Below the pieces are notes generated by a model, which saw only the letters and a program-made list of their open reading frames with translations, searched no databases and had not been told where the DNA came from. This document shows, piece by piece, positions 4,780 through 62,002 of a stretch of 64,000 nucleotides of DNA. Made by a program: the position numbers and the translations under genes. How positions within the stretch are numbered: the first letter of the stretch is position 1; each line of letters begins with the position of its first letter. The stretch is taken from the sequence record MW882907; one strand, written 5' to 3'. Source of the stretch: Escherichia phage vB_EcoM_SQ17.

Positions 4780-6468
4780 TTATGAAACAGTCATTACAGT
4801 AAATCGTCCAACTTTGCTCATTTGAAGATGTTGTCCATAAGCTTGTGGGTCATGGTCTCTGTGACTAATTATAAACACGTTTGCATCGGTTAGAGAGTTA
4901 AGAATTGTTGAAATAGCTTTAATACCTTCAGAATCAGTCGCGGAATCCATGACTTCGTCCATAATTAATGTATTGATTCTAACACCAGAGACCTTTTCAG
5001 CAATATCTCGCCATGTAAACAACAATGCGATATCGATACGCGCTTTTTCGCCTTGACTAAATGAAGCATAACTGAACTCTTCACGGCCACGTGATTTTAT
5101 AGATTCATTGAATTCTTCATCAATAGAAAACACGTAATCAGCTTCCATGATTTTAAGATAATGGTTAATCTGCTTGTTGAACAGAGGCACATATTTTTTA
5201 ATGATAGCACCTTTAATACCAGAATCTTTTAACATATCTGTGATAATACCACGATGGTATTTTTCAAGAACGATATCAGATTTTGTTTTAATGATTTTAT
5301 CAAGTTCTTTTTGAAGCAAAGCTATCTCATCGGCATGGTCGATAAATTCCGCTGAGGCTTGTTCTATTGCAGCTTTAACTTTCTTAGCTTTATCAATAGT
5401 GGCAATCATTGCTTGTTTCTTGGTACGAATATCAGATGCAAGGTCCTGTTTAGTCTTAACATTAGCTCTATATTCGTCCACTAGGACACTCAGATTATCT
5501 CTGTGACATGTAAGTTGCTCGAATGAGTGATTACATTCGTGAAGCTTATCGGTAATCTTAGAGACAATAGGATCACCCTGGTGCAACTGTGATGCACAAG
5601 TAGGACATGTGCCACCGTCATGATACATCTTAATAACTTTGTTATATGAGTCGATTTTAGATTTAATCAAGAATGCTTCTTGTCCGATCTTGTTGAATGC
5701 CTCAGTAGGGTCTTCATCAAGAACGATATTAAGTAGACGCTCGTTAGCTTCTTCGATTTCTGCTTTTAATGAACGAGCTTCTTTGGCTAGGTCGTCATAC
5801 ATATTCTGTAGACGCGCTACATTATCACCAGATAATTTCTTTTGACGTTCGATATTCTCGTTATAAATCTTAATTTGTTGGATAATACCATCTTTCTTGG
5901 CGTCGAGAACTTGTCCCTGGGAATTAAGTTCTCGAACTTGAGACTTATTGATTTTATCCATTTCAGCGAGTGTGCCGACTTCTAAAAGGTCTTCGACAAG
6001 TTTTCTACGAGCAGGGGTGCTAAGAGCCATGAAAGGGGTATACCCTGCCGTCCCAAGCACAACGATTTGTTTAAAAGACGCGTATGACATTCCGATGCTA
6101 CGTTCAAATTCTTCTTGGAAGTCACGACTGCTGGCAGATTCATCGAGACGAACACCGTCAACGGAGATTTCGAAAATATTGGGCTTTTGGCCACGTTTAA
6201 TGAAGTATTTTTTACCATCGAATTCCATCCAAAGCTCAACTAAGAGCTCTTTCTTGTTCGTGCTATTAATGATTTGCCCTTTCTTAACATCACGAAATGG
6301 TTTACCGAAAAGTCCGAAAGTAATGGCTTCTAACATCGTAGATTTACCACCACCATTTTTACCTGTGATTAAGGTCTTTTGGACTTTATCTAATTGGATA
6401 TCGATAAAATTTTGCCCAACAGACATTATATTTTTATAACGAACACGATTTAATTTAAATGTTTTCAC
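4780..6468 (-). CDS. 46: recombination endonuclease subunit gp46 (Rad50/SbcC-like ATPase)
   Basis: 562-aa ORF; N-terminal Walker A GKNGGGKST, long coiled-coil middle, C-terminal signature and Walker B LIMDEVMDS; start codon appears to be GTG. Confidence 0.9.
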   Translation of the reverse strand: MKTFKLNRVRYKNIMSVGQNFIDIQLDKVQKTLITGKNGGGKSTMLEAITFGLFGKPFRDVKKGQIINSTNKKELLVELWMEFDGKKYFIKRGQKPNIFEISVDGVRLDESASSRDFQEEFERSIGMSYASFKQIVVLGTAGYTPFMALSTPARRKLVEDLLEVGTLAEMDKINKSQVRELNSQGQVLDAKKDGIIQQIKIYNENIERQKKLSGDNVARLQNMYDDLAKEARSLKAEIEEANERLLNIVLDEDPTEAFNKIGQEAFLIKSKIDSYNKVIKMYHDGGTCPTCASQLHQGDPIVSKITDKLHECNHSFEQLTCHRDNLSVLVDEYRANVKTKQDLASDIRTKKQAMIATIDKAKKVKAAIEQASAEFIDHADEIALLQKELDKIIKTKSDIVLEKYHRGIITDMLKDSGIKGAIIKKYVPLFNKQINHYLKIMEADYVFSIDEEFNESIKSRGREEFSYASFSQGEKARIDIALLFTWRDIAEKVSGVRINTLIMDEVMDSATDSEGIKAISTILNSLTDANVFIISHRDHDPQAYGQHLQMSKVGRFTVMTVS

Positions 6469-13374: not shown

Positions 13375-13845
13375 TTAATCATGTTTCCACACCCCATCGG
13401 TATTTGACCAAAGTCGCTGATTATCTGATCCTCGCCACAGCTTTTTAGTCGGAAGATTTTTCTCATACTTCCCATCAATAATAACATCAACATATTTAAG
13501 CATTTCTAGTTGTTTAATATCTTCAAACTTATATCCTGTCCACAACCAAATGCTTTTATTAGGATAAAGATTTTTTACTGTTTGAACGATGCAATGAACA
13601 ACATCTCGGTTATCAGGATAGAGAGGGTCACCTCCGGTTATAGTCAATCCTTCTATATAATCATTATTCAAGCATTCAATTAATTGTTCTAGTGTCTCTC
13701 CAGTGAATGGAATGCCATTTCTAGCATTCCATGTTGATTTATTATAACACCCTTCGCATTTATGCAAACAACCTGTAACGAAAAGAACGACCCTGCATCC
13801 AGGGCCATTCACAAAATCGCAAGGATAAAATCTATCATAATTCAT
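13375..13845 (-). CDS. nrdG: anaerobic ribonucleotide reductase activating protein NrdG (radical SAM)
   Basis: 156-aa ORF with CLHKCEGC radical-SAM cysteine cluster; ATGA overlap with nrdD stop. Confidence 0.9.
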   Translation of the reverse strand: MNYDRFYPCDFVNGPGCRVVLFVTGCLHKCEGCYNKSTWNARNGIPFTGETLEQLIECLNNDYIEGLTITGGDPLYPDNRDVVHCIVQTVKNLYPNKSIWLWTGYKFEDIKQLEMLKYVDVIIDGKYEKNLPTKKLWRGSDNQRLWSNTDGVWKHD

Positions 13846-16704
13846 TGGTGTTTAACCCTATGCATGATTTCTTTATTTTTACCGAGATTAAATCCGCGTT
13901 CGTTCGGATTTCCCAAATAACCGCATGTTCTTCTTATAGTATTCATCTTTTTAGGATCACTTTCTCCACAAACTGAACAAACAAATCCGTTTTCAGTAGG
14001 AGTCATTTCATGGGTACTTCCACATGTAAAACATTTATCTACTGGCATATTAACACCAAAATAATCTAAATGTTGTGCAGCATAATCCCACACGGCCTCA
14101 AGACCTTTTAGGTTATTTTTCATATCAGGAAGTTCAACATAAGAAATGTGACCGCCTGTCGCAATGAAATGATATGGGGCTTCGCGAGAAATCTTTTCAA
14201 ACGGAGTAATATTTTCTTCTACTGAAACATGGAAACTATTAGTGTACCAGCCTTTATCAGTAACATCTTTTACACTTCCATATTTTTCGGTATCAAGTTT
14301 ACAGAAGCGATAGCACAGGTTTTCAGCAGGAGTAGAATACAAACTAAAAGCGAATCCGGTTCTTTCAGTCCATTGTTTAAGATGAATATTCATTTTAGTT
14401 AAAATTTCTTGTCCAATATCACGACCGACAAGAATATTCAATTCGTGAATACCAATGTATCCCAAAGACACTGAACTTCTACCGTTTTTAAATAACTCAA
14501 TTATATCGTCATCAGGTTTAAGACGAACACCGAATGCACCTTCTTGGTAAAGAATAGGAGCAACAGTAGCTTTAACACCCTTTAAAGAACTAATTCTGCA
14601 CATCAATGCTTCAAAACACAGATCCATTCGTTCATTGAATAATTCAACAAATTTCTGTTCATTGAATTGTGTTCCAATATAAGAATCTAACGCAATACGA
14701 GGAAGATTCAGTGTTACAACACCAAGATTATTACGTCCATCAAGAATTTCATTACCAGTCGAATCTTTCCATACACTCAAGAAACTACGGCAACCCATTG
14801 GAGAAACAGGAACAGATGAACCAGTGATAGCTTTATTATTCTTAACTGAAATAATATCAGGATACATTCTTTTGCTTGCACACTCTAGAGCAAGCTGCTT
14901 AATATCGTAGTTCGGGTCGTCTTTATAAAGATTGACACCCTCTTCAACGAACATAACAAGTTTAGGGAAAATAGGAGATATCCCATTGCGACCAAGACCT
15001 TTAATACGATTTTTCAGAATTGCTTTTTGAATCATTCGTTCAGTCCAGTCAGTTCCCGTACCAAATGTAATTGTTACAAAAGGCGTTTGTCCATTAGAGC
15101 TGAAAAGTGTATTTACTTCATCATTATATTCAGCATGAGTCGCAAATTCATGCCCGTTTATATGAAACAACAAAATTTGGATAGTCCATAGATATGCAAC
15201 GTTCTTTTATAGTGCTAGGATGAAAATTTAGCGCTTTAGCTGCTTCTATATAAGACGTATACTTAATACCGTCAACAACCACATATTCAGGAACTTTATG
15301 AATAGTAGTCTTAATACTCAAAACAAGAGGATGAGTTTCGACTTCACTTTCAGTGCAATTTAAATATTCCGCTGCTTTTTTAAAACTTCTAAAAGTTTTA
15401 TTTTTAAGCTTTATCGATACTTGTTTTTTACTTTTTCGACTATTGATATTATTTTGCACATGTTCCTTAGATCTTCCGTTTTTAGCATAATATTCAGCTA
15501 CAGAAGATTTTATATTGTTTTTATGAGATTCGGATAACACTTTACCCTTATGAGCATCTCTTAATTTTTGAATATGTTCTTCAGTATCCGGATGCTTATA
15601 AAACTTTTTACCGCCTATGGATTTATTTAAACACTTTTTGCTATAAAAATATTTACGTATGACCTCTTCTTCATGTTTTAATGCATCTTTATAACTATCA
15701 AATGTTTTTAAAATTATCCATTTAGTAGGTGTATCAGTTTTTAAGCGTTCATTTATATACTTAGATGACGTTGTGTAAGTTTTCCAGTTTGTGGGCTTGT
15801 TTTTAATTGTTCTAAATTTTTTATAACCGATATAAATGTCACCATTAGAAAACTTAACTAAGTATGTAAATGCGTCTTTATCTTTTATTTTAGTACAACG
15901 TCTTTTTATCCATTTCATTGTTTCACCTCGTATTCATAAGATAATCTTATTTATACAAGATGACTGCTGCATGTCGCCATGCAGATTAGACTATATCTTC
16001 ATCTTTCGATGCCGGCCGTTTCGAATAGCATTAGCTTCTATTCTACACCGCTACATTCATCACGGTTAGTCGTTAGGCATTTAGTTCAAAAGAACATTTA
16101 GCACGGGATTGTCTACTAGAGAGGTTCCCCGTTTAGACCGGTTTTACATGAGCCTGAATTAAATTAACTCATACGCCTGGAATGCATCGTATACGTCTTT
16201 TTCTGTTTTAGATTGGGCGTAATTCAACGCATCAGCGATTTGCCATTTTTCTGCATCTTCAACATGTTTAGCGTATGTGCGTTTAACATAAGGAGAAAGT
16301 ACTTTATCTACATTAGCAAATGTAGTTCCGCCGTACTGGTGTGAAGCAACTTGTGCAGTAATTTGTGCCATAATTGCAGTAGCAACACCAATCGATTTAG
16401 GCGTTTCAATTTGAGCATTACCTAGCTTAAATCCGTTTTCAAGCATTCCTTTTAAATCTACTAAACAACAATTAGTAAATGGAAGAGCAGGGGAATAATC
16501 AATATCATGGAAATGGATAATTCCACTTTCATGTGCTTTCATAATAAAAGACGGGACCATATTTTTGGCAATGTGCTTAGACACAATACCAGCCATAAGG
16601 TCCCGTTGAGTTGGAAAAACACGAGAATCTTTATTAGCATTCTCGTTCAAAAGATCTTTATTAGTTTTATGAATTAATCCTTCAATTTCTTTTTCAATTT
16701 TCAT
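13842..16704 (-). CDS. nrdD: anaerobic ribonucleoside-triphosphate reductase NrdD, interrupted by a group I intron
   Basis: Exon 1 about 16165..16704 (MKIEKEIEGLIHK...), exon 2 about 13842..15110 ending with glycyl-radical motif RRTCGYLG; the two reading frames are separated by an intron with its own ORF. Confidence 0.8.
15110..16164 (-). mobile_element. group I intron in nrdD carrying a homing endonuclease ORF (boundaries approximate)
   Basis: Non-coding GC-richer 5' core 15919..16164 contains GAAGATATAGTC (S-element-like) and AACGACUAA; ORF occupies the 3' part as in the T4 nrdD (sunY) intron. Confidence 0.6.
15148..15918 (-). CDS. intron-encoded GIY-YIG homing endonuclease (I-TevII-like)
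   Basis: 256-aa ORF, ATG start, N-terminal GIY-YIG-type motif ...FSNGDIYIGYKKF...; basic C-terminal DNA-binding region. Confidence 0.8.
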   Translation of the reverse strand: MKWIKRRCTKIKDKDAFTYLVKFSNGDIYIGYKKFRTIKNKPTNWKTYTTSSKYINERLKTDTPTKWIILKTFDSYKDALKHEEEVIRKYFYSKKCLNKSIGGKKFYKHPDTEEHIQKLRDAHKGKVLSESHKNNIKSSVAEYYAKNGRSKEHVQNNINSRKSKKQVSIKLKNKTFRSFKKAAEYLNCTESEVETHPLVLSIKTTIHKVPEYVVVDGIKYTSYIEAAKALNFHPSTIKERCISMDYPNFVVSYKRA

Positions 16705-17174
16705 TTTAAACTCTTTTTAAGCTGCTTTTTGAATGAAGCTATTAATTGTGTTTTGGTATCAGATTCATTATATTCAAATCCTCTTTGAAGCATCTCAGCC
16801 ATCATTTCCTCTTTACCTAGTCTTGAGAACTCTTTAGTTTTGTCTGGAACAAAATTAGGATGGATATTATTATCAGAATAATCTTGTTTCAAATAAGCAA
16901 GAAGAGCTTCAAGCCATTCGAGGTAGTCGACATCACGTCCTTTAAGACCGGAACGGTTGAACTTATGCTTCATTTGACCTTCTGCTGCATTGCACAGATT
17001 ACAGAGTAACCCACGAACTCTACCTGCTTTTGGCCCGTTTAATTCATGGTCGTGGTCAAGATGGTTACCTTGAACATCAGGGTCTAATTCACGGTGGCAA
17101 ATAGGACACTTACCATTCTGTGCATCATAAAATTTTTGTTTTTCTTCTTTGTATAATTTGCCAGATAATAACAT
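16701..17174 (-). CDS. 49: endonuclease VII (Holliday junction resolvase) gp49
   Basis: 157-aa ORF MLLSGKLYKEEKQKFYDAQNGKCPICHREL...HLDHDHELNGPKAGRVRGLLCNLCN; zinc-binding cysteines and catalytic His/Asp/Glu typical of T4 endo VII. Confidence 0.85.
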   Translation of the reverse strand: MLLSGKLYKEEKQKFYDAQNGKCPICHRELDPDVQGNHLDHDHELNGPKAGRVRGLLCNLCNAAEGQMKHKFNRSGLKGRDVDYLEWLEALLAYLKQDYSDNNIHPNFVPDKTKEFSRLGKEEMMAEMLQRGFEYNESDTKTQLIASFKKQLKKSLK

Positions 17175-17987: not shown

Positions 17988-18115
17988 AATAATCTCTTCC
18001 CATTTCCATATCAATTAATTCATTTATTGAAGGTTCATCATAACACGTTTCTTCGTCATTGTAAACTGTTTCGACGTCTGGCTCGACTGTCTCCCATCGA
18101 GCCGAATACCACGGT

Positions 18116-18472
18116 TTAACCCCGGAGTTTATTGAGCTCTTCATAATCAATCCAGGATTCTAGCCCTGACGGCAGGTCACATTCAATGTTCCACAGAAGC
18201 TCTTCAATGGCTTGCAGGCGATTATATTCTTCAACGGTAATGGTAACCATTGGTGCAACCGGTTCTGCCTTTTTAACCATCATATCGTTCATCAGGACGT
18301 AAAGGTCATCACGAACAACAGTGTCGCTCCAACCCCATGATTTGGCTTCGTAAGCTAATGATGAAGGGAGCACATTTAAAACTTCAATAATAGTTGGAGC
18401 ATCAGGACCAAGTTCATTGGCACAAACTTCGTATACATCTTGGAAATCTTTAAGATTTAATGAATATGTCAT
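18116..18472 (-). CDS. hypothetical protein
   Basis: 118-aa ORF, ATG start, overlaps nrdC start by 4 nt. Confidence 0.5.
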   Translation of the reverse strand: MTYSLNLKDFQDVYEVCANELGPDAPTIIEVLNVLPSSLAYEAKSWGWSDTVVRDDLYVLMNDMMVKKAEPVAPMVTITVEEYNRLQAIEELLWNIECDLPSGLESWIDYEELNKLRG

Positions 18473-31536: not shown

Positions 31537-31817
31537 TAGTATTTTTCCTCAGGTCGAAATACTGCACGACATGCCCACATACTGGCTTCTTTTAGATGTT
31601 GCTTAGCATACTTAAGAGCCTGCACTGCATCCATATCTTCTTTGGTTTGTTGCTCTGTTTCATTTTCTTTCAAGATATACGCTTCTTCAATCAGAGCATC
31701 AAACATCAATCCAAGACGGACTTCGGCATCTTTAATAGCGTTCACTTTACCGATTTTATCGTCGGTATGCGGCTTGTAGCCTTTGATGTCTTCAATCGAC
31801 ATAAGGAATTTCCTCAT
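31536..31817 (-). CDS. Acb2-like protein (T4 vs.4 position; putative cyclic-oligonucleotide sponge)
   Basis: Track ORF trimmed to ATG: MRKFLMSIEDIKGYKPHTDDKIGKVNAIKDAEVRLGLMFDALIEEAYIL... 93 aa; size and position match T4 vs.4. Confidence 0.5.
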   Translation of the reverse strand: MRKFLMSIEDIKGYKPHTDDKIGKVNAIKDAEVRLGLMFDALIEEAYILKENETEQQTKEDMDAVQALKYAKQHLKEASMWACRAVFRPEEKY

Positions 31818-32016
31818 CGGTGGCAAGGTCATATTCGACCAATTGGATAGGCTCATTAATACCATATCCACGTACAGTGATATCAGTTGTCGGATAGTTT
31901 CCAGTAATATCACCCATTCTAAATGCTTCAGTGAATGATTGCTCGCCTGAGCAACTAAACCAGGCGGCAAAACATTTTAAAACATCTTCAGACCCTTCTA
32001 TAATCAATTTAGCCAT
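31792..32016 (-). CDS. hypothetical protein
   Basis: 74-aa ORF, acidic. Confidence 0.4.
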   Translation of the reverse strand: MAKLIIEGSEDVLKCFAAWFSCSGEQSFTEAFRMGDITGNYPTTDITVRGYGINEPIQLVEYDLATDEEIPYVD

Positions 32017-32378
32017 TATAGACTCTCAGTAAAGGTACGAGCGATAACATCGCGCTGCTGTTCCGGGGTCAGAGAGTTAAAGCGAACTGCATAACCGGAT
32101 ACACGGATGGTCAGCTGCGGATATTTTTCCGGATGCTTAACTGCATCTTCCAGAGTTTCACGACGCAGAACGTTAACGTTCAGGTGTTGACCACCTTCAA
32201 TTTTAACTTTAGGATGATGTTCAATTTCAATTTCACGGGCATTCAAACCGTAGAAAATTTCCGGGTCTACAATAGCGTCTTCTTTAAAAGTCTTAGAGAC
32301 GATAATCCGGGCTTGAGTACCGTCTTCAAAATAAATAGTGCCTTTATGTGCACCTTCAAGAATTTGATATGCTTTCAT
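32016..32378 (-). CDS. autonomous glycyl radical cofactor (GrcA/YfiD-like)
   Basis: 120-aa ORF ending ...[33 protein letters not shown] with RVSGY glycyl-radical motif; 3' half visibly GC-richer. Confidence 0.7.
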
Positions 32379-32384
32379 ATAACC

Positions 32385-32693
32385 TCAATTAGAAAATAAA
32401 TTTATCCAAGTTTTTTCTTTAATCAAAAATGGGTCGGAATTAAACGCCATTAAACTTTGAGTGATTAATCCCTTAAATGGCCCATCAATAAATTCCATTT
32501 TGAAATGCGGAATACTAGTCATCAACCGTGCATTAGGAGCAGTACAAAGAACCTGCTGCCCTGCGAACGGACCTTTAGTCAAACGATATCGTTTAGGTTT
32601 AAAATGGTAAATCTCGTAATTTTCTACAAGAGCCCTTTTATTGCATACTGGGCTGTTATAACAATACTCAAAAACTTCAATAGTGGTCATCAT
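32385..32693 (-). CDS. hypothetical protein
   Basis: Track ORF trimmed to ATG ATG (MMTTIEVFEYCYNSPV...), overlapping upstream stop. Confidence 0.45.
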   Translation of the reverse strand: MMTTIEVFEYCYNSPVCNKRALVENYEIYHFKPKRYRLTKGPFAGQQVLCTAPNARLMTSIPHFKMEFIDGPFKGLITQSLMAFNSDPFLIKEKTWINLFSN

Positions 32694-33229
32694 TGCATTC
32701 CAATCACAAAAAATTGAGGACGAGCAATACCGCCGATGCAATATTTGCTTTTGCAGCAGTACTGTACTGATTTAATATGGACATTGTAAATCTTATCCAT
32801 ATCAGGAGCTTTAATAGGCTCGTCAATTATATACAGAATACGAGAAAGCGTTAATCCACGGAATTTAGAACCTTCATTACCAATAAAACTACGGACAGAA
32901 TCAGTAAATAAACGGAATCGAATATCATCGCTAGAATAACGAGAAAATTCTTTTTTAATGTTGCCAGCAGAAATTTTAGCATAAGCTGAAGTATTAGAAA
33001 GAACAATAACTGTTCCACCATCGTGCAGCCAATTAGCGGCAAAATTAGTTACTGCAGTCGATTTACCCGATTGTCTGCCGCCGTCTAAACGAAGTGTACA
33101 GTACTGCTTGAGTACTTCTTCAAATGGCGGGATATAACCATTCTTACAAATTTCTTCTACTCTAGCATCAGAATGGTGTGTAAAAGCATTCATCAGGGAT
33201 AGATAAGGTCCAGTTAAAAATGTTCTCAT
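32690..33229 (-). CDS. small P-loop NTPase of unknown function
   Basis: 179-aa ORF; Walker A DGGRQSGKST, Walker B ILYIIDEP. Confidence 0.5.
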   Translation of the reverse strand: MRTFLTGPYLSLMNAFTHHSDARVEEICKNGYIPPFEEVLKQYCTLRLDGGRQSGKSTAVTNFAANWLHDGGTVIVLSNTSAYAKISAGNIKKEFSRYSSDDIRFRLFTDSVRSFIGNEGSKFRGLTLSRILYIIDEPIKAPDMDKIYNVHIKSVQYCCKSKYCIGGIARPQFFVIGMQ

Positions 33230-35952: not shown

Positions 35953-36426
35953 TTATAGGATGGTAGTGAGCACCTTATATAATGATTTGCCCATTACATA
36001 TTCCCATTGAGAAGGTTTAATTAAAGCGAATGCATCAAATTCAGGAATCTGTCGTCCGTCTGGGAACGTATGATAGGAATTACAAACACTGTTTCTGAAT
36101 TGCTCGTGCTCTACAGGGATGGTATATAAGAACAGATGAATATTCTTATTGTCTGAGTAATGATGATCACCTAGGTCTTTCAGGAAGGCAGGGTCATATT
36201 GTGTAAACCCGGTTTCTTCTTCGCATTCACGAATAGCGGCTTCGATAGGAGATTCGCCGGGCTCGACACGACCTTTAGGAATATCCCACCGATGAGCTAA
36301 AGAACCTTTAGGACGAGAACCAGTTACACGCCCCATGAATAATTCTTTATCTTCGGTAAGGAAAATAATACCAGCTGATAGTTCTTTCACTTTATTTTTC
36401 TTACTCATCATCTCAAATTCCTGCAT
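35953..36426 (-). CDS. nudE: Nudix hydrolase NudE
   Basis: 157-aa ORF with Nudix box GRVEPGESPIEAAIRECEEETG. Confidence 0.8.
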   Translation of the reverse strand: MQEFEMMSKKNKVKELSAGIIFLTEDKELFMGRVTGSRPKGSLAHRWDIPKGRVEPGESPIEAAIRECEEETGFTQYDPAFLKDLGDHHYSDNKNIHLFLYTIPVEHEQFRNSVCNSYHTFPDGRQIPEFDAFALIKPSQWEYVMGKSLYKVLTTIL

Positions 36427-46020: not shown

Positions 46021-47753
46021 TGGAAATGATTAGCAGTAGCCTTAATTGGTTCGTGGGTGTTGTCGAGGACAGAATGGACCCGTTAAAACAAGGGCGAGTT
46101 CGAGTTCGAGTCGTTGGTCTTCATCCAGCGCAGAGAACACAAGGTGATGTACAAGGTATTCCTACAGAAAAACTTCCATGGATGACTGTTATTCAACCTA
46201 TTACGTCTGCATCAATGTCAGGTATTGGTGGTTCTGTTACAGGTCCTGTTGAAGGAACTCGAGTATATGGTCATTTCTTAGACAAATGGAAAACAAACGG
46301 GATTGTACTTGGTACATACGGCGGAATAGTACGTGAAAAGCCTAATAGACTTGAAGGTTTTTCAGACCCGACAGGCCAGTATCCGCGACGTTTAGGTAAT
46401 GATACGAACGTACTAAACCAAGGTGGTGAAGCTGGTTATTATTCGAACTCTAACGTAATTCAAGATAACAACTTGGATTATGGTATAAACCCAGACGATA
46501 CAGATTTAGCAAATATTCCAGAAGATGATGACCCTAATTTTACAATAACAGAAATGTTACGTCGTGACGAAGGTCTTCGTGATAAAGTGTATTGGGACCA
46601 TCTCGGATATCCTACAGTAGGTATTGGACACCTTATCGTAATGGAAAAGACCCGAGATATGTCTCGAATTAATAAATTGTTATCTGATCAAGTAGGGCGT
46701 GAAGTAACAGGAAATCCCGGGACTATTACATTAGAAGAAGCAACAGCGTTATTTGAGAAGGACCTTGCTAAGATGCAGAAAGACATTCGTTCTAATTCTA
46801 AAGTAGGTCCTGTTTATGCTAAAATGAACAGATCTCGCCAAATGGCATTAGAAAACATGTGCTTCCAGATGGGCGTTGGCGGTGTAGCAAAATTCAATAC
46901 TATGCTTAAAGCAATGGCCACAGGCGATTGGAAAACCGCATACAAATCCGGACGCGATTCGTTATGGTTCCAACAGACTAAAGGGCGTGCTTCACGTGTA
47001 ACAACAATTATTTTAACCGGTAACATGGAATCATACGGTGTTCCTGTTAAAACACCGCCTTCACCAGGAGTTGGTGCCGATTTAGTTACTAGAAATACCG
47101 ATCCAGAAGACCCGGCCGGTCCTCCTATTCCGTTAGATTCACGTATCCTTTTTAAAGAACCAGAATCAAGTTATCGTGGTGAGTATCCATACGTTCATGC
47201 TATGGAAACAGAAAGCGGTCATATCCAAGAATTTGACGATACTCCAGGTAATGAACGTTATCGCTTAGTTCATCCAACAGGGTCATATGAGGAAGTTTCT
47301 CCGTCGGGGCGTCGTACTCGTAAAACTGTAGAAGACCTTTTTGACATCACTAATGGCGATGGGAACTTCTTGATTTCCGGTGATAAACTTGTTAACGTTG
47401 GTGCTAATGAAATATATTATAACATGGCCGACCGCCTCCATCAAATAGACGGCAATGACACAATCTTTATTCGTGGTAACCAATCTAAAACTGTTGAAGG
47501 CGATGGAACTCTTTACGTTAAGGGCAATATCAAAATAGTTGTTGACGGAAATGCGGATATTCTTGTTAAAGGTGATGCTAAAACTCAGGTCGAAGGGAAT
47601 CATGATTACACCGTCAACGGAAACGTTAAATGGACTGTTAATGGTAATGTTGATATGACTGTTGCCGGGGATTGGGCAGAGACAATGTCTACAATGAGCT
47701 CAATAGCTTCAGGACAATACACTGTTGACGGATCTCGTATTGATATTGGGTAA
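46020..47753 (+). CDS. 5: baseplate hub / tail lysozyme gp5
   Basis: 577-aa ORF; central lysozyme domain (DEGLRDKVYWDHLGYPTVGIGHL) and C-terminal V-x-G-x beta-helix repeats. Confidence 0.9.
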   Translation: MEMISSSLNWFVGVVEDRMDPLKQGRVRVRVVGLHPAQRTQGDVQGIPTEKLPWMTVIQPITSASMSGIGGSVTGPVEGTRVYGHFLDKWKTNGIVLGTYGGIVREKPNRLEGFSDPTGQYPRRLGNDTNVLNQGGEAGYYSNSNVIQDNNLDYGINPDDTDLANIPEDDDPNFTITEMLRRDEGLRDKVYWDHLGYPTVGIGHLIVMEKTRDMSRINKLLSDQVGREVTGNPGTITLEEATALFEKDLAKMQKDIRSNSKVGPVYAKMNRSRQMALENMCFQMGVGGVAKFNTMLKAMATGDWKTAYKSGRDSLWFQQTKGRASRVTTIILTGNMESYGVPVKTPPSPGVGADLVTRNTDPEDPAGPPIPLDSRILFKEPESSYRGEYPYVHAMETESGHIQEFDDTPGNERYRLVHPTGSYEEVSPSGRRTRKTVEDLFDITNGDGNFLISGDKLVNVGANEIYYNMADRLHQIDGNDTIFIRGNQSKTVEGDGTLYVKGNIKIVVDGNADILVKGDAKTQVEGNHDYTVNGNVKWTVNGNVDMTVAGDWAETMSTMSSIASGQYTVDGSRIDIG

Positions 47754-58038: not shown

Positions 58039-59591
58039 GTAACAATACATATCAACACGTTTCGAACGAATCTGTATATGTTGAATTTGACCCTACCGGG
58101 TCAAATTTTGATAGTTCAATAACCAATGTCCAGGCAGCCTTAGCCTCAATTAGCGCATATGGTGTTAAAGGTGTTCCGGAAGCAAGCGAAGCAGAAAAAG
58201 GTGTAATTCAATTAGCGTCAGAACAAGAAGTTCTTGATGGATTTAATAGTACTAAAGCCGTTACACCAGCAACATTAAATGCAAGACTTCAGTATCCGAA
58301 CGCGTCAGAAACACAGTACGGCGTAACTAAATATGCAACACAAGAGGAGGCCATTGCTGGCACTTTAGACACTGTTTCTATTACTCCGCTTAAATTAAAC
58401 CAAACTATTGATAACACTTTCTCTACTCGGTATTCAACAGAAACAACTAACGGTGTTATTAAAATTGCAACTCAAACCGCGGCACTTGCTGGATCTGATG
58501 ACACCACAGCAATGACTCCGCTTAAAACGCAACAATTAGCAATAAAATTAATTTCTCAAATAGCTCCTAATAACGACCCGGCTTCAGAATCTATTACCGG
58601 TGTTGTGCGTTTAGCTACGGTGGCTCAAACACGTCAAGGAACTCTTCGCGAAGGATATGCAATTTCCCCGTATACCTTTATGAATTCTGTTGCAACACAA
58701 GAATATAAAGGTGTTATACGTCTAGGAACACAAGCGGAAATTAATAGCAATTTGGGAGATGTTGCTGTAACAGGTGAAACGCTAAATGGTAGAGGAGCTA
58801 CCGGTTCTATGCGTGGAGTCGTAAAATTAACGACGCAGGCTGGTATTGCCCCTGAAGGCGATAGCTCTGGAGCATTAGCATGGAACGCAGATGTAATTAA
58901 TACACGCGGTGGGCAAACTATTAATGGTTCTTTAAATTTAGATCACCTCACAGCAAATGGAATTTGGTCGCGTGGCGGAATGTGGAAAAACGGTGACCAG
59001 CCAGTTGCAACAGAGAGATATGCATCTGAACGTGTTCCTGTTGGAACAATTCAAATGTTCGCAGGTGATAGCGCTCCTCCAGGTTGGGTTTTATGTCATG
59101 GTGGGACCATTTCTGGAGACCAATTTCCGGACTATCGAAATGTGGTCGGAACAAGATTTGGCGGTGATTGGAATAATCCTGGTATTCCTGATATGCGAGG
59201 TCTTTTTGTTAGAGGAGCTGGCACAGGCAGTCATATTTTAAATCAACGCGGACAAGATGGTTATGGGAAGGATAGACTTGGTGTAGGATGTGACGGAATG
59301 CATGTTGGCGGTGTTCAGGCACAACAAATGTCATACCATAAACATGCTGGTGCCTGGGGGGAAAATGGAAATAGCAGAGGTTATGCACCGTTTGGAGCAT
59401 CTAATGGCAATGGATATTTAGGCAATGGTAAAAGCGCCGACTGGGACAACCATTTGTTCTTTACTAACGACGGATTTGAAATGGGTGGTGCTCGTGACTC
59501 GTTTGGCACGTTAAACCGTGAAGGATTAATTGGTTATGAAACTAGACCATGGAATATATCATTAAATTATATTATTAAAGTCCATTACTAA
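58035..59591 (+). CDS. 12: short tail fiber protein gp12
   Basis: 518-aa ORF with repetitive central region and C-terminal receptor-binding domain; ATGA overlap with gene 11. Confidence 0.9.
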
Positions 59592-61075: not shown

Positions 61076-62002
61076 ATGTCAGGTTATAATGCACAAAACC
61101 CTAAAGAATTAAAGGACGTAATATTACGTCGTTTAGGCGCTCCTATTGTAAATGTTGAATTAACTACAGATCAAATTTATGATTGTATTTCACGAGCGTT
61201 AGAACTTTATGGCGAATACCATTTTGACGGGTTGAATAAAGGTTTCCATGTATTTTTTGTTGATGATGAAGAAAAATACCGTCACGGCGTATTTGATATG
61301 CGCGGTTCTAACGTATTTGCCGTAACAAGAATTATAAGAACAAACGTTGGCTCTATTACTTCAATGGACGGTAATGCAACTTATCCTTGGTTCACTGATT
61401 TCCTTTTAGGAATGGCAGGTGTTTCTGGTGGCATGGGTAGTAATTGTGGTAAATTCTACGGACCGAACGCTTTTGGCGCTGACCTTGGGTATTATTCTCA
61501 ATTAGTATCTTATATGGGTATGCTTCAAGATATGATTGCTCCTCTTCCAGATTTTTGGTTTAACTCTGCAAACGAGCAATTAAAAGTAATGGGTAACTTT
61601 AGACAGAAAGACGTCATTATCGTTGAATCGTATGTTCGCTCTTATATCGAGACCCATAAGATGGTAGGAAATACAGTAGGGTACGGCCAGGTCGGTCCTC
61701 GTGATTCATGGTCTATTTCTGAGCGGTATGACAACCCGGACCATAATTTGGTCGGACGTCGAGTTGGTGAAGATCCTGCAACTAAACAAGGCGCATATAA
61801 CAACCGCTGGGTTAAAGATTATGCAACTGCATTAGCTAAAGAGCTTAATGGGCAAATTCTTGCTAAACATCAAGGTATGATGTTACCAGGTGGCGTCACT
61901 GTTGATGGCGTTCGATTAATTGAGGAAGCTCGTTTAGAGAAAGAAGCTTTACGAGAAGAGTTATATTTACTGGACCCTCCTGCTGGTATTTTGGTAGGTT
62001 AA
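61076..62002 (+). CDS. 13: neck protein gp13
   Basis: 308-aa ORF; size and position match T4 gp13. Confidence 0.85.

Follow-up and report, generated by a model that had tools for sequence, protein, structure and literature searches.

A host-matched segment in the vs.6/grcA-like gene of the T4-like phage vB_EcoM_SQ17, probably acquired by gene conversion from Escherichia coli grcA

Identity and genomic context of the vs.6-like gene

The 64,000-nt stretch of Escherichia phage vB_EcoM_SQ17 DNA analysed here (sequence record MW882907; hereafter the window) carries a small open reading frame (ORF) that resembles both vs.6 of phage T4 and grcA (yfiD), the glycyl radical cofactor gene of Escherichia coli, and its 3′ half is nearly identical to the host gene (Table 1). 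The window comes from a T4-like phage of the genus Mosigvirus, and its vs.6-like gene shares 98.6% identity with the one in E. coli O157 typing phage 3. It differs from T4 vs.6 at 27 of 363 nt (92.6% nucleotide identity; 92.5% for the protein) and has the same neighbours, lying between vs.7 and vs.5 in the regB–denV early region, with flanks collinear with T4 63073–64898. The protein matched PHROG 1209 over its full length (1–120 of 121, E = 2.3e-62). Judged by sequence and position, the ORF is the ortholog of T4 vs.6/Y06I (PHROG 1209 group); therefore, the gene and its function are already known. The first-pass annotation had stated, correctly, that T4 carries this YfiD homolog.

The vs.6-like protein scored 67.4 bits against Pfam Gly_radical (PF01228; cutoff 22.2) over residues 59–101, as expected of the class of small (~14 kDa) stand-alone glycyl-radical-domain proteins. 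The radical-site motif RVSGYAV with Gly95 is present, and the surrounding 60 residues are those of E. coli GrcA. The best-scoring family by a wide margin was TIGR04365 (spare_glycyl, NCBIfam; 159 bits, E = 6.3e-47, profile positions 23–126/126), although the equivalog cutoff of 170 bits was not reached because the N-terminal half is divergent. The structure of E. coli YfiD/GrcA (PDB 6OWR) was matched with E = 3.6e-42. A search of the vs.6 region against Rfam gave no match.

Compared with T4 Vs.6, which is already annotated as GrcA in RefSeq, the window protein has the same length (120 aa), gene position and host-identical tract. The two differ at nine amino acids, eight of them in the N-terminal half; T4 carries R73H inside the tract, and the last 10 nt of the genes also differ. 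Homology to E. coli GrcA (TIGR04365/IPR011140) extends over residues 21–120, and both proteins combine a variable N-terminal half with a glycyl radical domain. Over the last 60 residues (GGQHLNV... to the C-terminal L), identity to E. coli GrcA is 100%, and the DNA encoding them is 97–100% identical, whereas the phage N-terminal half is only weakly similar (~52% at the nucleotide level) and seven residues shorter. The phage gene further differs from E. coli grcA in its phage-type composition, promoter context and neighbours. The C-terminal domain of pyruvate formate-lyase (PFL), PflB residues 693–759, shares the fold and motif and aligns with phage residues 54–120 (E = 6.5e-27).

Table 1. Features of the vs.6-like locus and of other regions of the window mentioned in the text.
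Feature	Position in window	Strand	Remarks
vs.6/grcA-like coding sequence	32016..32378	-	120 aa, ATG start; predicted autonomous glycyl radical cofactor, T4 vs.6 (Y06I) ortholog by sequence and position
Phage-lineage 5′ part	32201..32378	-	gene positions 1–178, codons 1–59; phage-like composition and divergence
Putative host-derived conversion tract	32026..32200	-	gene positions 179–353 = E. coli grcA 200–374 = GrcA codons 67–125
Codon of predicted radical-bearing Gly95	32094..32096	-	motif RVSGYAV (= GrcA Gly102, PflB Gly734; numbering of these two from the account in PMC8683613); located by alignment to 6OWR and PFL chains
Last 10 nt including stop, 3′ limit of tract	32016..32025	-	tail GAG AGT CTA TAA, phage-type; E. 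coli has GAA AGC CTG TAA
Shine-Dalgarno-like GAGG	32383..32386	-	4-nt spacer (TTAT) to ATG; overlaps stop codon of vs.7-like ORF; read from the sequence
Downstream ORF	31792..32016		A of its ATG is the final A of the vs.6-like stop codon
Upstream vs.7-like ORF	32385..32741		
Split nrdD	13842-16704	-	ORF 16159..16704 = NRDD profile 1–141; ORF 13842..15173 = 145–562, including glycyl radical domain
GIY-YIG/NUMOD1 homing-endonuclease-like ORF	15148..15918		256 aa
NrdG activase homolog	13375-13845	-	Fer4_12/Radical_SAM
Endonuclease VII (gene 49) homolog	16701-17174	-	
Seven other GC-rich stretches	5963-6196, 18036-18269, 36148-36346, 46948-47132, 58831-59398, 61610-61832		at least 0.48 GC over 185 nt

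A break in composition and host identity within the gene

The G+C (GC) content of the gene is 0.481 over 32016–32200 and 0.360 over 32201–32378, with a window mean of 0.370, and the tract ranks in the top 0.17% of all 185-nt windows of the stretch (z = 2.8). GC at third codon positions (GC3) is 0.41 in the tract versus 0.25 in the 5′ half. CTG accounts for five of the six leucine codons in the tract and for 7% of leucine codons in the long phage ORFs, and the tract uses the same codon as E. coli grcA at 55 of 58 positions, compared with 23.9 expected from phage codon usage. E. coli grcA itself is even in GC (0.467 in its 5′ part and 0.486 in its 3′ part) and strongly codon-biased, with CTG for all 11 leucines.

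When the gene was aligned with E. coli grcA and scanned by maximum chi-square, the breakpoint fell at gene position 179, i.e., window position 32200; its value was not attained in any of 2000 permutations. On the 5′ side of this point, 91/175 positions (52.0%) agree with E. coli grcA, compared with 180/185 (97.3%) on the 3′ side (Fisher p = 4.5e-26). A sharp, statistically supported shift of composition and host identity within a gene is the pattern of the psbA/psbD-type recombinants discussed below. The first-pass annotation, made from the letters alone, had described a GC-rich 3′ half with CTG-type codons (about 32016..32200) beside an AT-rich 5′ half; the GC values and host codons bear this out, and the break site that it named (32200) coincides with the computed one. 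GC and GC3 were both uneven across the gene, so the uniform composition that had been named as speaking against the proposal was not what was found. The C-terminus that it quoted does match E. coli GrcA, except that the window reads VKIEGGQHL; VRVEGGQHL belongs to E. coli.

The tract opens with 133 nt that match E. coli grcA exactly, and it shares 173 of its 175 nt with the grcA allele found in E. coli strain 1190. In two related phages from IMG/VR, L097 and L099, the match to E. coli grcA is exact over 175/175 nt. By comparison, the longest exact run between grcA genes of different bacteria has a median of 18 nt. The tract occurs in grcA of all 5,426 complete E. coli genomes (96.8–97.3% identity), whereas nothing similar to the phage 5′ half was detected in any of them. 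In megablast searches against these genomes, the tract was the sole match of the whole 64-kb window, and no other host-derived tract was detected in it. The donor was grcA rather than pflB, because the tract is only ~79% identical to E. coli pflB at the nucleotide level, versus 97% to grcA.

The affinity with E. coli in particular was evident at synonymous and diagnostic sites. Synonymous divergence from E. coli was 0–0.09 for the phage tracts, 0.32 for Citrobacter and 0.57 for Salmonella. At sites separating E. coli from other genera, the window has the E. coli state at 23/23 (Klebsiella), 13/14 (Citrobacter) and 29/29 (Salmonella). In a neighbour-joining tree of the 175 nt, all Tequatrovirus and Mosigvirus tracts grouped within Escherichia, scattered among the E. 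coli alleles (bootstrap 0.99). Nesting of the tract in the host clade, while the 5′ half follows phage phylogeny, is likewise a feature of psbA/psbD-type recombinants. The nucleotide alignment proposed earlier as a check thus came out in favour of the host, with 97.3% identity to host grcA, more than to any phage homolog compared beyond Tequatrovirus and Mosigvirus, among them those of Jiaodavirus (~84–86%); the still lower tract identity to the homologs of Slopekvirus, Pseudotevenvirus, Krischvirus and T5-like phages was judged by eye from a dot-alignment.

Seven other stretches of the window are as GC-rich as the tract (Table 1). They had no megablast similarity to any complete E. coli genome and are therefore not recent E. 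coli-derived tracts.

The phage-lineage remainder of the gene

Outside the tract, the gene belongs to the phage lineage. Over its 178 positions, the 5′ half differs from Tequatrovirus at 18–22 and from Jiaodavirus at 44–48, corresponding to identities of 88–90% with T4 and ~75% with Jiaodavirus, compared with 52% with E. coli. At the other end, the homologs of Slopekvirus and Pseudotevenvirus share the GAG AGT CTA tail. Across the T-even phages, E. coli and phage states are mixed in a patchy way in the last three codons, the pattern that variable conversion endpoints or heteroduplex repair would leave. The vs.6-like gene is thus a chimera of a phage-lineage 5′ half and a host-type radical-domain half. 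The old phage-lineage 5′ half together with the phage-type last 10 nt therefore indicates that a pre-existing phage homolog was patched, not newly captured. Of the two origins offered in the first-pass annotation, "recent acquisition or gene conversion", gene conversion from host grcA fits better, whereas acquisition of the whole gene does not agree with the phage-lineage 5′ half.

Age and recurrence of host-matched segments

Between Mosigvirus (the window, O157 typing phage 3, L096 and L097) and Tequatrovirus (T4 and five others), the proportion of differing synonymous sites (pS) falls from 0.334 in the 5′ half to 0.069 in the tract. The window and T4 are ~79% identical over the flanking 4 kb and 98–99% over the tract. 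Likewise, 13 synonymous positions of the 5′ half distinguish L097 from L099, but none of the tract does (p = 9.5e-6). The low divergence of the tract therefore implies that it is far more recent than the separation of the two genera.

Positions 200–384 of E. coli grcA were found at an identity of at least 95% in ~638 phage records, and in all matches listed the similarity starts at 199–202. A corresponding segment matching another host was found in Klebsiella phages. The grcA gene of the K. pneumoniae complex was matched at 95–99% in 108 phage records; those listed in this band are Klebsiella phages, with matches over positions 202–369/374. In Jiaodavirus, whose members are Klebsiella phages, the same segment is 95–97% identical to K. 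pneumoniae-complex grcA, reaching 97.0% over positions 202–369 in phage KP1. At the 23 diagnostic sites, the Klebsiella state occurs at 18–19 in KP1, Merci and L122 and at 15 in KP179. Cross-identities are lower in both directions, at 85–87% for E. coli phages to Klebsiella grcA and 86–88% for Klebsiella phages to E. coli grcA. The presence of Klebsiella-type sequence in the same segment of Klebsiella phages therefore indicates that conversion took place at least twice. A third, weaker case is L117, from an uncultured group of 130–150-kb phages, in which a 74-nt stretch departs from Haemophilus grcA at a single position, compared with 13 in the sister phage L118.

In a clade of uncultured phages (IMG/VR contigs L114–L119 and L125, ~30–150 kb), the vs.6 homologs are ~130–134 aa long with a C-terminal domain nearest to Pasteurellaceae grcA, and the near-exact 74-nt Haemophilus-type sub-tract of L117 is lacking in the sister contigs. 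In L116, two genes upstream of the vs.6 homolog, there is a radical-SAM-like protein, which, from a reading of its sequence, we take to resemble QueE. Yersinia, Hafnia and Citrobacter isolates of Tequatrovirus carry vs.6 genes 92.6–93.4% identical to that of the window, and the E. coli-type tract was confirmed in the Hafnia isolate (174/175 nt). The record "Pseudomonas phage vB_PSGBLB0006" (PV654520, 142 kb) has a T-even vs.6 that is 86.9% identical to K. pneumoniae grcA, the same as in the E. coli phages listed with it; the host label or the identity of this record may be wrong. A polymorphism shared between E. coli and phages (T/C at grcA position 240) was considered as evidence of repeated conversion and set aside as weak, one phage having G at this site, which may be mutable. 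The IMG/VR locus L124 (91% to Yersinia grcA) was not used; it is a full-length bacterial-type grcA on a short contig and probably host DNA.

Origin of the mosaic

Taken together, the sequence pattern is very probably the outcome of homologous gene conversion from host to phage, with E. coli grcA as the donor in the window, at least two conversion events among T-even phages, and an effect confined to the glycyl-radical-domain block. The direction is read as host to phage because E. coli grcA is compositionally uniform, because the tree position of its 3′ part agrees with bacterial phylogeny (nearest branch, Citrobacter), and because the composition of the tract is foreign to the phage, not to the host.

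Among the alternatives, a single ancient conversion in the common ancestor of T-even phages, with the tract retained and slow-evolving since then, fares best, and we still regard it as very improbable and contradicted by the data. All T-even genera do have the same 5′ limit of the conserved block, as this scenario would require; a common limit is expected anyway, since homology to grcA begins at this point in unconverted lineages too. Against it, pS in the tract is one-fifth of the value for the neighbouring 5′ half, between genomes whose flanks are 79% identical, and Jiaodavirus has Klebsiella-type, not E. coli-type, sequence.

Recent capture of the entire E. coli gene, with the 5′ half alone diverging very rapidly thereafter, is still harder to reconcile with the data. 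The protein is homologous to GrcA throughout the aligned region, from residue 21 to the end, which is compatible with capture of the whole gene. However, the 5′ half follows phage phylogeny, synonymous sites cannot saturate in one half of a gene yet stay at 0–0.09 in the other, and the phage-type last 10 nt place the tract inside an older gene.

Convergence, in which extreme purifying selection and translationally optimal codons in both genes produced a grcA-identical 3′ half, has against it that bacterial grcA genes encoding nearly the same protein differ at 32–57% of synonymous sites. The 60 GrcA-identical C-terminal residues and the strong codon bias of grcA are what such selection might be expected to leave, but shared bias does not account for the E. 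coli state at almost every separating site, for more than twice the number of identical codons predicted by phage usage, for the phage codons in the 5′ half of the same mRNA, or for the match of Klebsiella phages to Klebsiella grcA instead. Convergence through shared codon bias is effectively refuted.

The opposite direction, with the 3′ half of E. coli grcA derived from a T-even phage, is scarcely credible. Identity by itself gives no direction, but the uniform GC of E. coli grcA, the enterobacterial phylogeny of its 3′ part, the composition of the tract, foreign to the phage and not to the host, and its presence in every complete E. coli genome all contradict a phage origin. Lastly, host DNA contamination or chimeric assembly can be dismissed almost entirely, given that the same junction recurs in the reference sequence of T4 and in phages sequenced independently by the hundreds and that the reading frame is continuous, with the tract embedded in phage sequence on both sides.

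Several points nevertheless weigh against gene conversion from the host as set out above, or narrow it. First, Mosigvirus and Tequatrovirus either were converted separately or share one tract that passed between them by phage–phage recombination. Window–T4 identity is also raised (87–93%, with a background of ~79%) over the 5′ half of vs.6 and the end of the vs.7-like ORF (32427–32526), and it drops abruptly on the vs.5 side of vs.6; the raised identity may reflect an older phage–phage exchange across the junction. Second, the clade of Jiaodavirus with K. pneumoniae has a bootstrap value of 0.69 on 175 nt. Third, no host-specific tract or long exact run was found in the homologs of Slopekvirus, Pseudotevenvirus, Krischvirus, T5-like and Aeromonas phages, which are 70–85% identical to the sampled host grcA genes, a sample that covered some genera and included one Cronobacter grcA. 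This Cronobacter gene was no closer to phage leB than E. coli grcA was. Conversion is therefore not universal. Fourth, the protein remains below the TIGR04365 cutoff, and the mechanism of host–phage recombination is proposed from the sequence pattern. Finally, rescue of PFL is documented for T4 Y06I and would extend to the 92.5%-identical window protein by orthology.

Proposed mechanism of conversion

During T4 infection, host DNA is fragmented, and phage recombination, which relies on UvsX and UvsY, is very active. Host DNA fragments arising from infection could thus invade the phage homolog via the phage recombination machinery, and ~175 nt over the structured glycyl radical domain would be overwritten by homologous (homeologous) recombination with chromosomal grcA. 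The limits of the tract would be set where nucleotide homology begins, just before GAAGGTGG, and where it ends, near the stop codon. In unconverted lineages, similarity to grcA starts just before the same point and stops near the stop codon, with ~50% identity upstream; tracts that fill exactly this homology block are what homology-limited recombination predicts.

The same boundary is also a structural one. Residues 61–127 of YfiD are described as structured and residues 1–60 as disordered in the account given by PMC8683613. The tract (GrcA codons 67–125) coincides with the structured glycyl radical domain, and phage codons 1–59 correspond to the disordered N-terminal half. Thus, the tract boundary may reflect both the homology limit and functional modularity.

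A broader proposal, which we put forward tentatively and rate at somewhat below an even chance, is that the glycyl-radical segment of vs.6 evolves in concert with host grcA. Each time that T-even phages became established on a new host genus, conversion would recur, with E. coli as the source in Tequatrovirus and Mosigvirus, Klebsiella in Jiaodavirus and, over a partial tract of 74 nt, a Haemophilus-type host. It would be favoured since a host-identical domain would best fit host PflA and PflB. If this is true, a strictly lytic phage with modified DNA would be using the host chromosome as a template to repair or update a metabolic gene, and the tract would be a molecular record of the phage's recent principal host.

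Predicted function and relation to NrdD

T4 Y06I is reported to be activated by the PFL-activating enzyme and to rescue oxygen-cleaved PFL (Wagner et al. 2001, as cited in PMC8683613). Two reviews (PMC8683613; PMC13450708), according to which spare parts are known only for formate lyases, list it as one of just two proteins validated as spare parts for oxygen-cleaved PFL. By orthology, host PflA is expected to activate the window protein, which would then take the place of the oxygen-cleaved C-terminus of host PflB. It could thereby keep host PFL working in microaerobic infection and sustain the supply of acetyl-CoA, ATP and formate. Formate in turn serves as reductant for NrdD, the class III ribonucleotide reductase that the phage encodes as well.

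The first-pass annotation had credited the T4 homolog with the repair of oxygen-cleaved glycyl-radical enzymes in general and had pointed to NrdD as a relevant one. Rescue by Y06I is documented for PFL only, and a direct link to NrdD is unsupported: the tract encodes a domain of the PFL/GrcA type (RVSGYAV), and the NrdD motif is RRTCGYLG. A spare part serving phage NrdD rather than host PFL thus seems unlikely, though it is not without grounds. NrdD is a glycyl radical enzyme encoded in the window, the vs.6 homolog of Aeromonas phage Ah1 lies between nrdG and nrdC, and a role in nucleotide metabolism is suggested in an older paper (PMC1524935). Against these stand a domain apparently copied from GrcA and matching PflB residues 693–759, the different radical motifs (RRTCGYLG in NrdD and IRVSGYAV in the vs.6-like protein) and experimental rescue documented only for PFL.

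The synteny in Ah1 is, by our own reasoning, explicable indirectly if PFL-derived formate feeds NrdD. An indirect link of vs.6 to NrdD through PFL formate is plausible, and formate supply to NrdD would account for the nrdG–vs.6–nrdC order. In the Ah1 genome itself (L094, NC_055733; a distant T4-like phage), the vs.6 homolog at 197–580 stands between nrdG and nrdC/nrdH, inside an anaerobic nucleotide-reduction cluster. This arrangement hints at a functional link of the spare-part protein to NrdD metabolism, possibly through formate supply.

Comparison with other mosaic genes and significance

Intragenic host–phage recombination with patchy %G+C has been described for psbA and psbD of T4-like cyanophages (Sullivan et al. 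2006, PMC1484495; for the mosaic psbA/psbD genes, see also Zeidner et al. 2005, as cited there). The vs.6-like gene resembles these genes as a host-derived metabolic gene in a lytic T4-like phage, with patchy composition, statistical signals of recombination and clustering by host. It differs from them in that the donor can be named to species, the match is base-exact in some phages, the limits lie at a protein-domain boundary and the host is enteric. In the psbA cases, unlike vs.6, exchange went in both directions and was mostly between phages.

No published description of the vs.6/grcA mosaic was found in the literature searched, although a prior mention is possible. The gene and its biochemical role are already known, and our results add nothing new on what the protein does; what is probably unreported is the well-supported, host-matched gene-conversion tract within this known gene. 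T4-group phages are usually regarded as exchanging little DNA with their hosts, and the tract would represent an unusually clean, base-exact case of host-to-phage gene conversion in this group. The host match of the same segment in at least two pairs of phage genus and host genus suggests either selection for compatibility with host PFL and its activase or a "homology trap", in which the sole phage sequence similar enough to host DNA is repeatedly overwritten. Such a tract could mark the recent evolutionary host of a phage.

Other observations

The nrdD gene of the window is split into two ORFs separated by ~985 nt that carry the homing-endonuclease-like ORF (Table 1). A search for a group I intron in this region gave no Rfam match at the gathering threshold; from its organisation, we take the split gene to resemble the T4 nrdD intron with I-TevII. 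The NrdG activase homolog lies directly downstream of nrdD and the endonuclease VII homolog directly upstream.

In the record of O157 typing phage 3 (L002, KP869101; 3150–3994 and 5178–6187), the deposited annotation gives the name "endoribonuclease RegB" to each of four different ORFs in the surroundings of vs.6, apparently by carry-over; the only one that agrees with T4 regB in position and size is 5178–5636.

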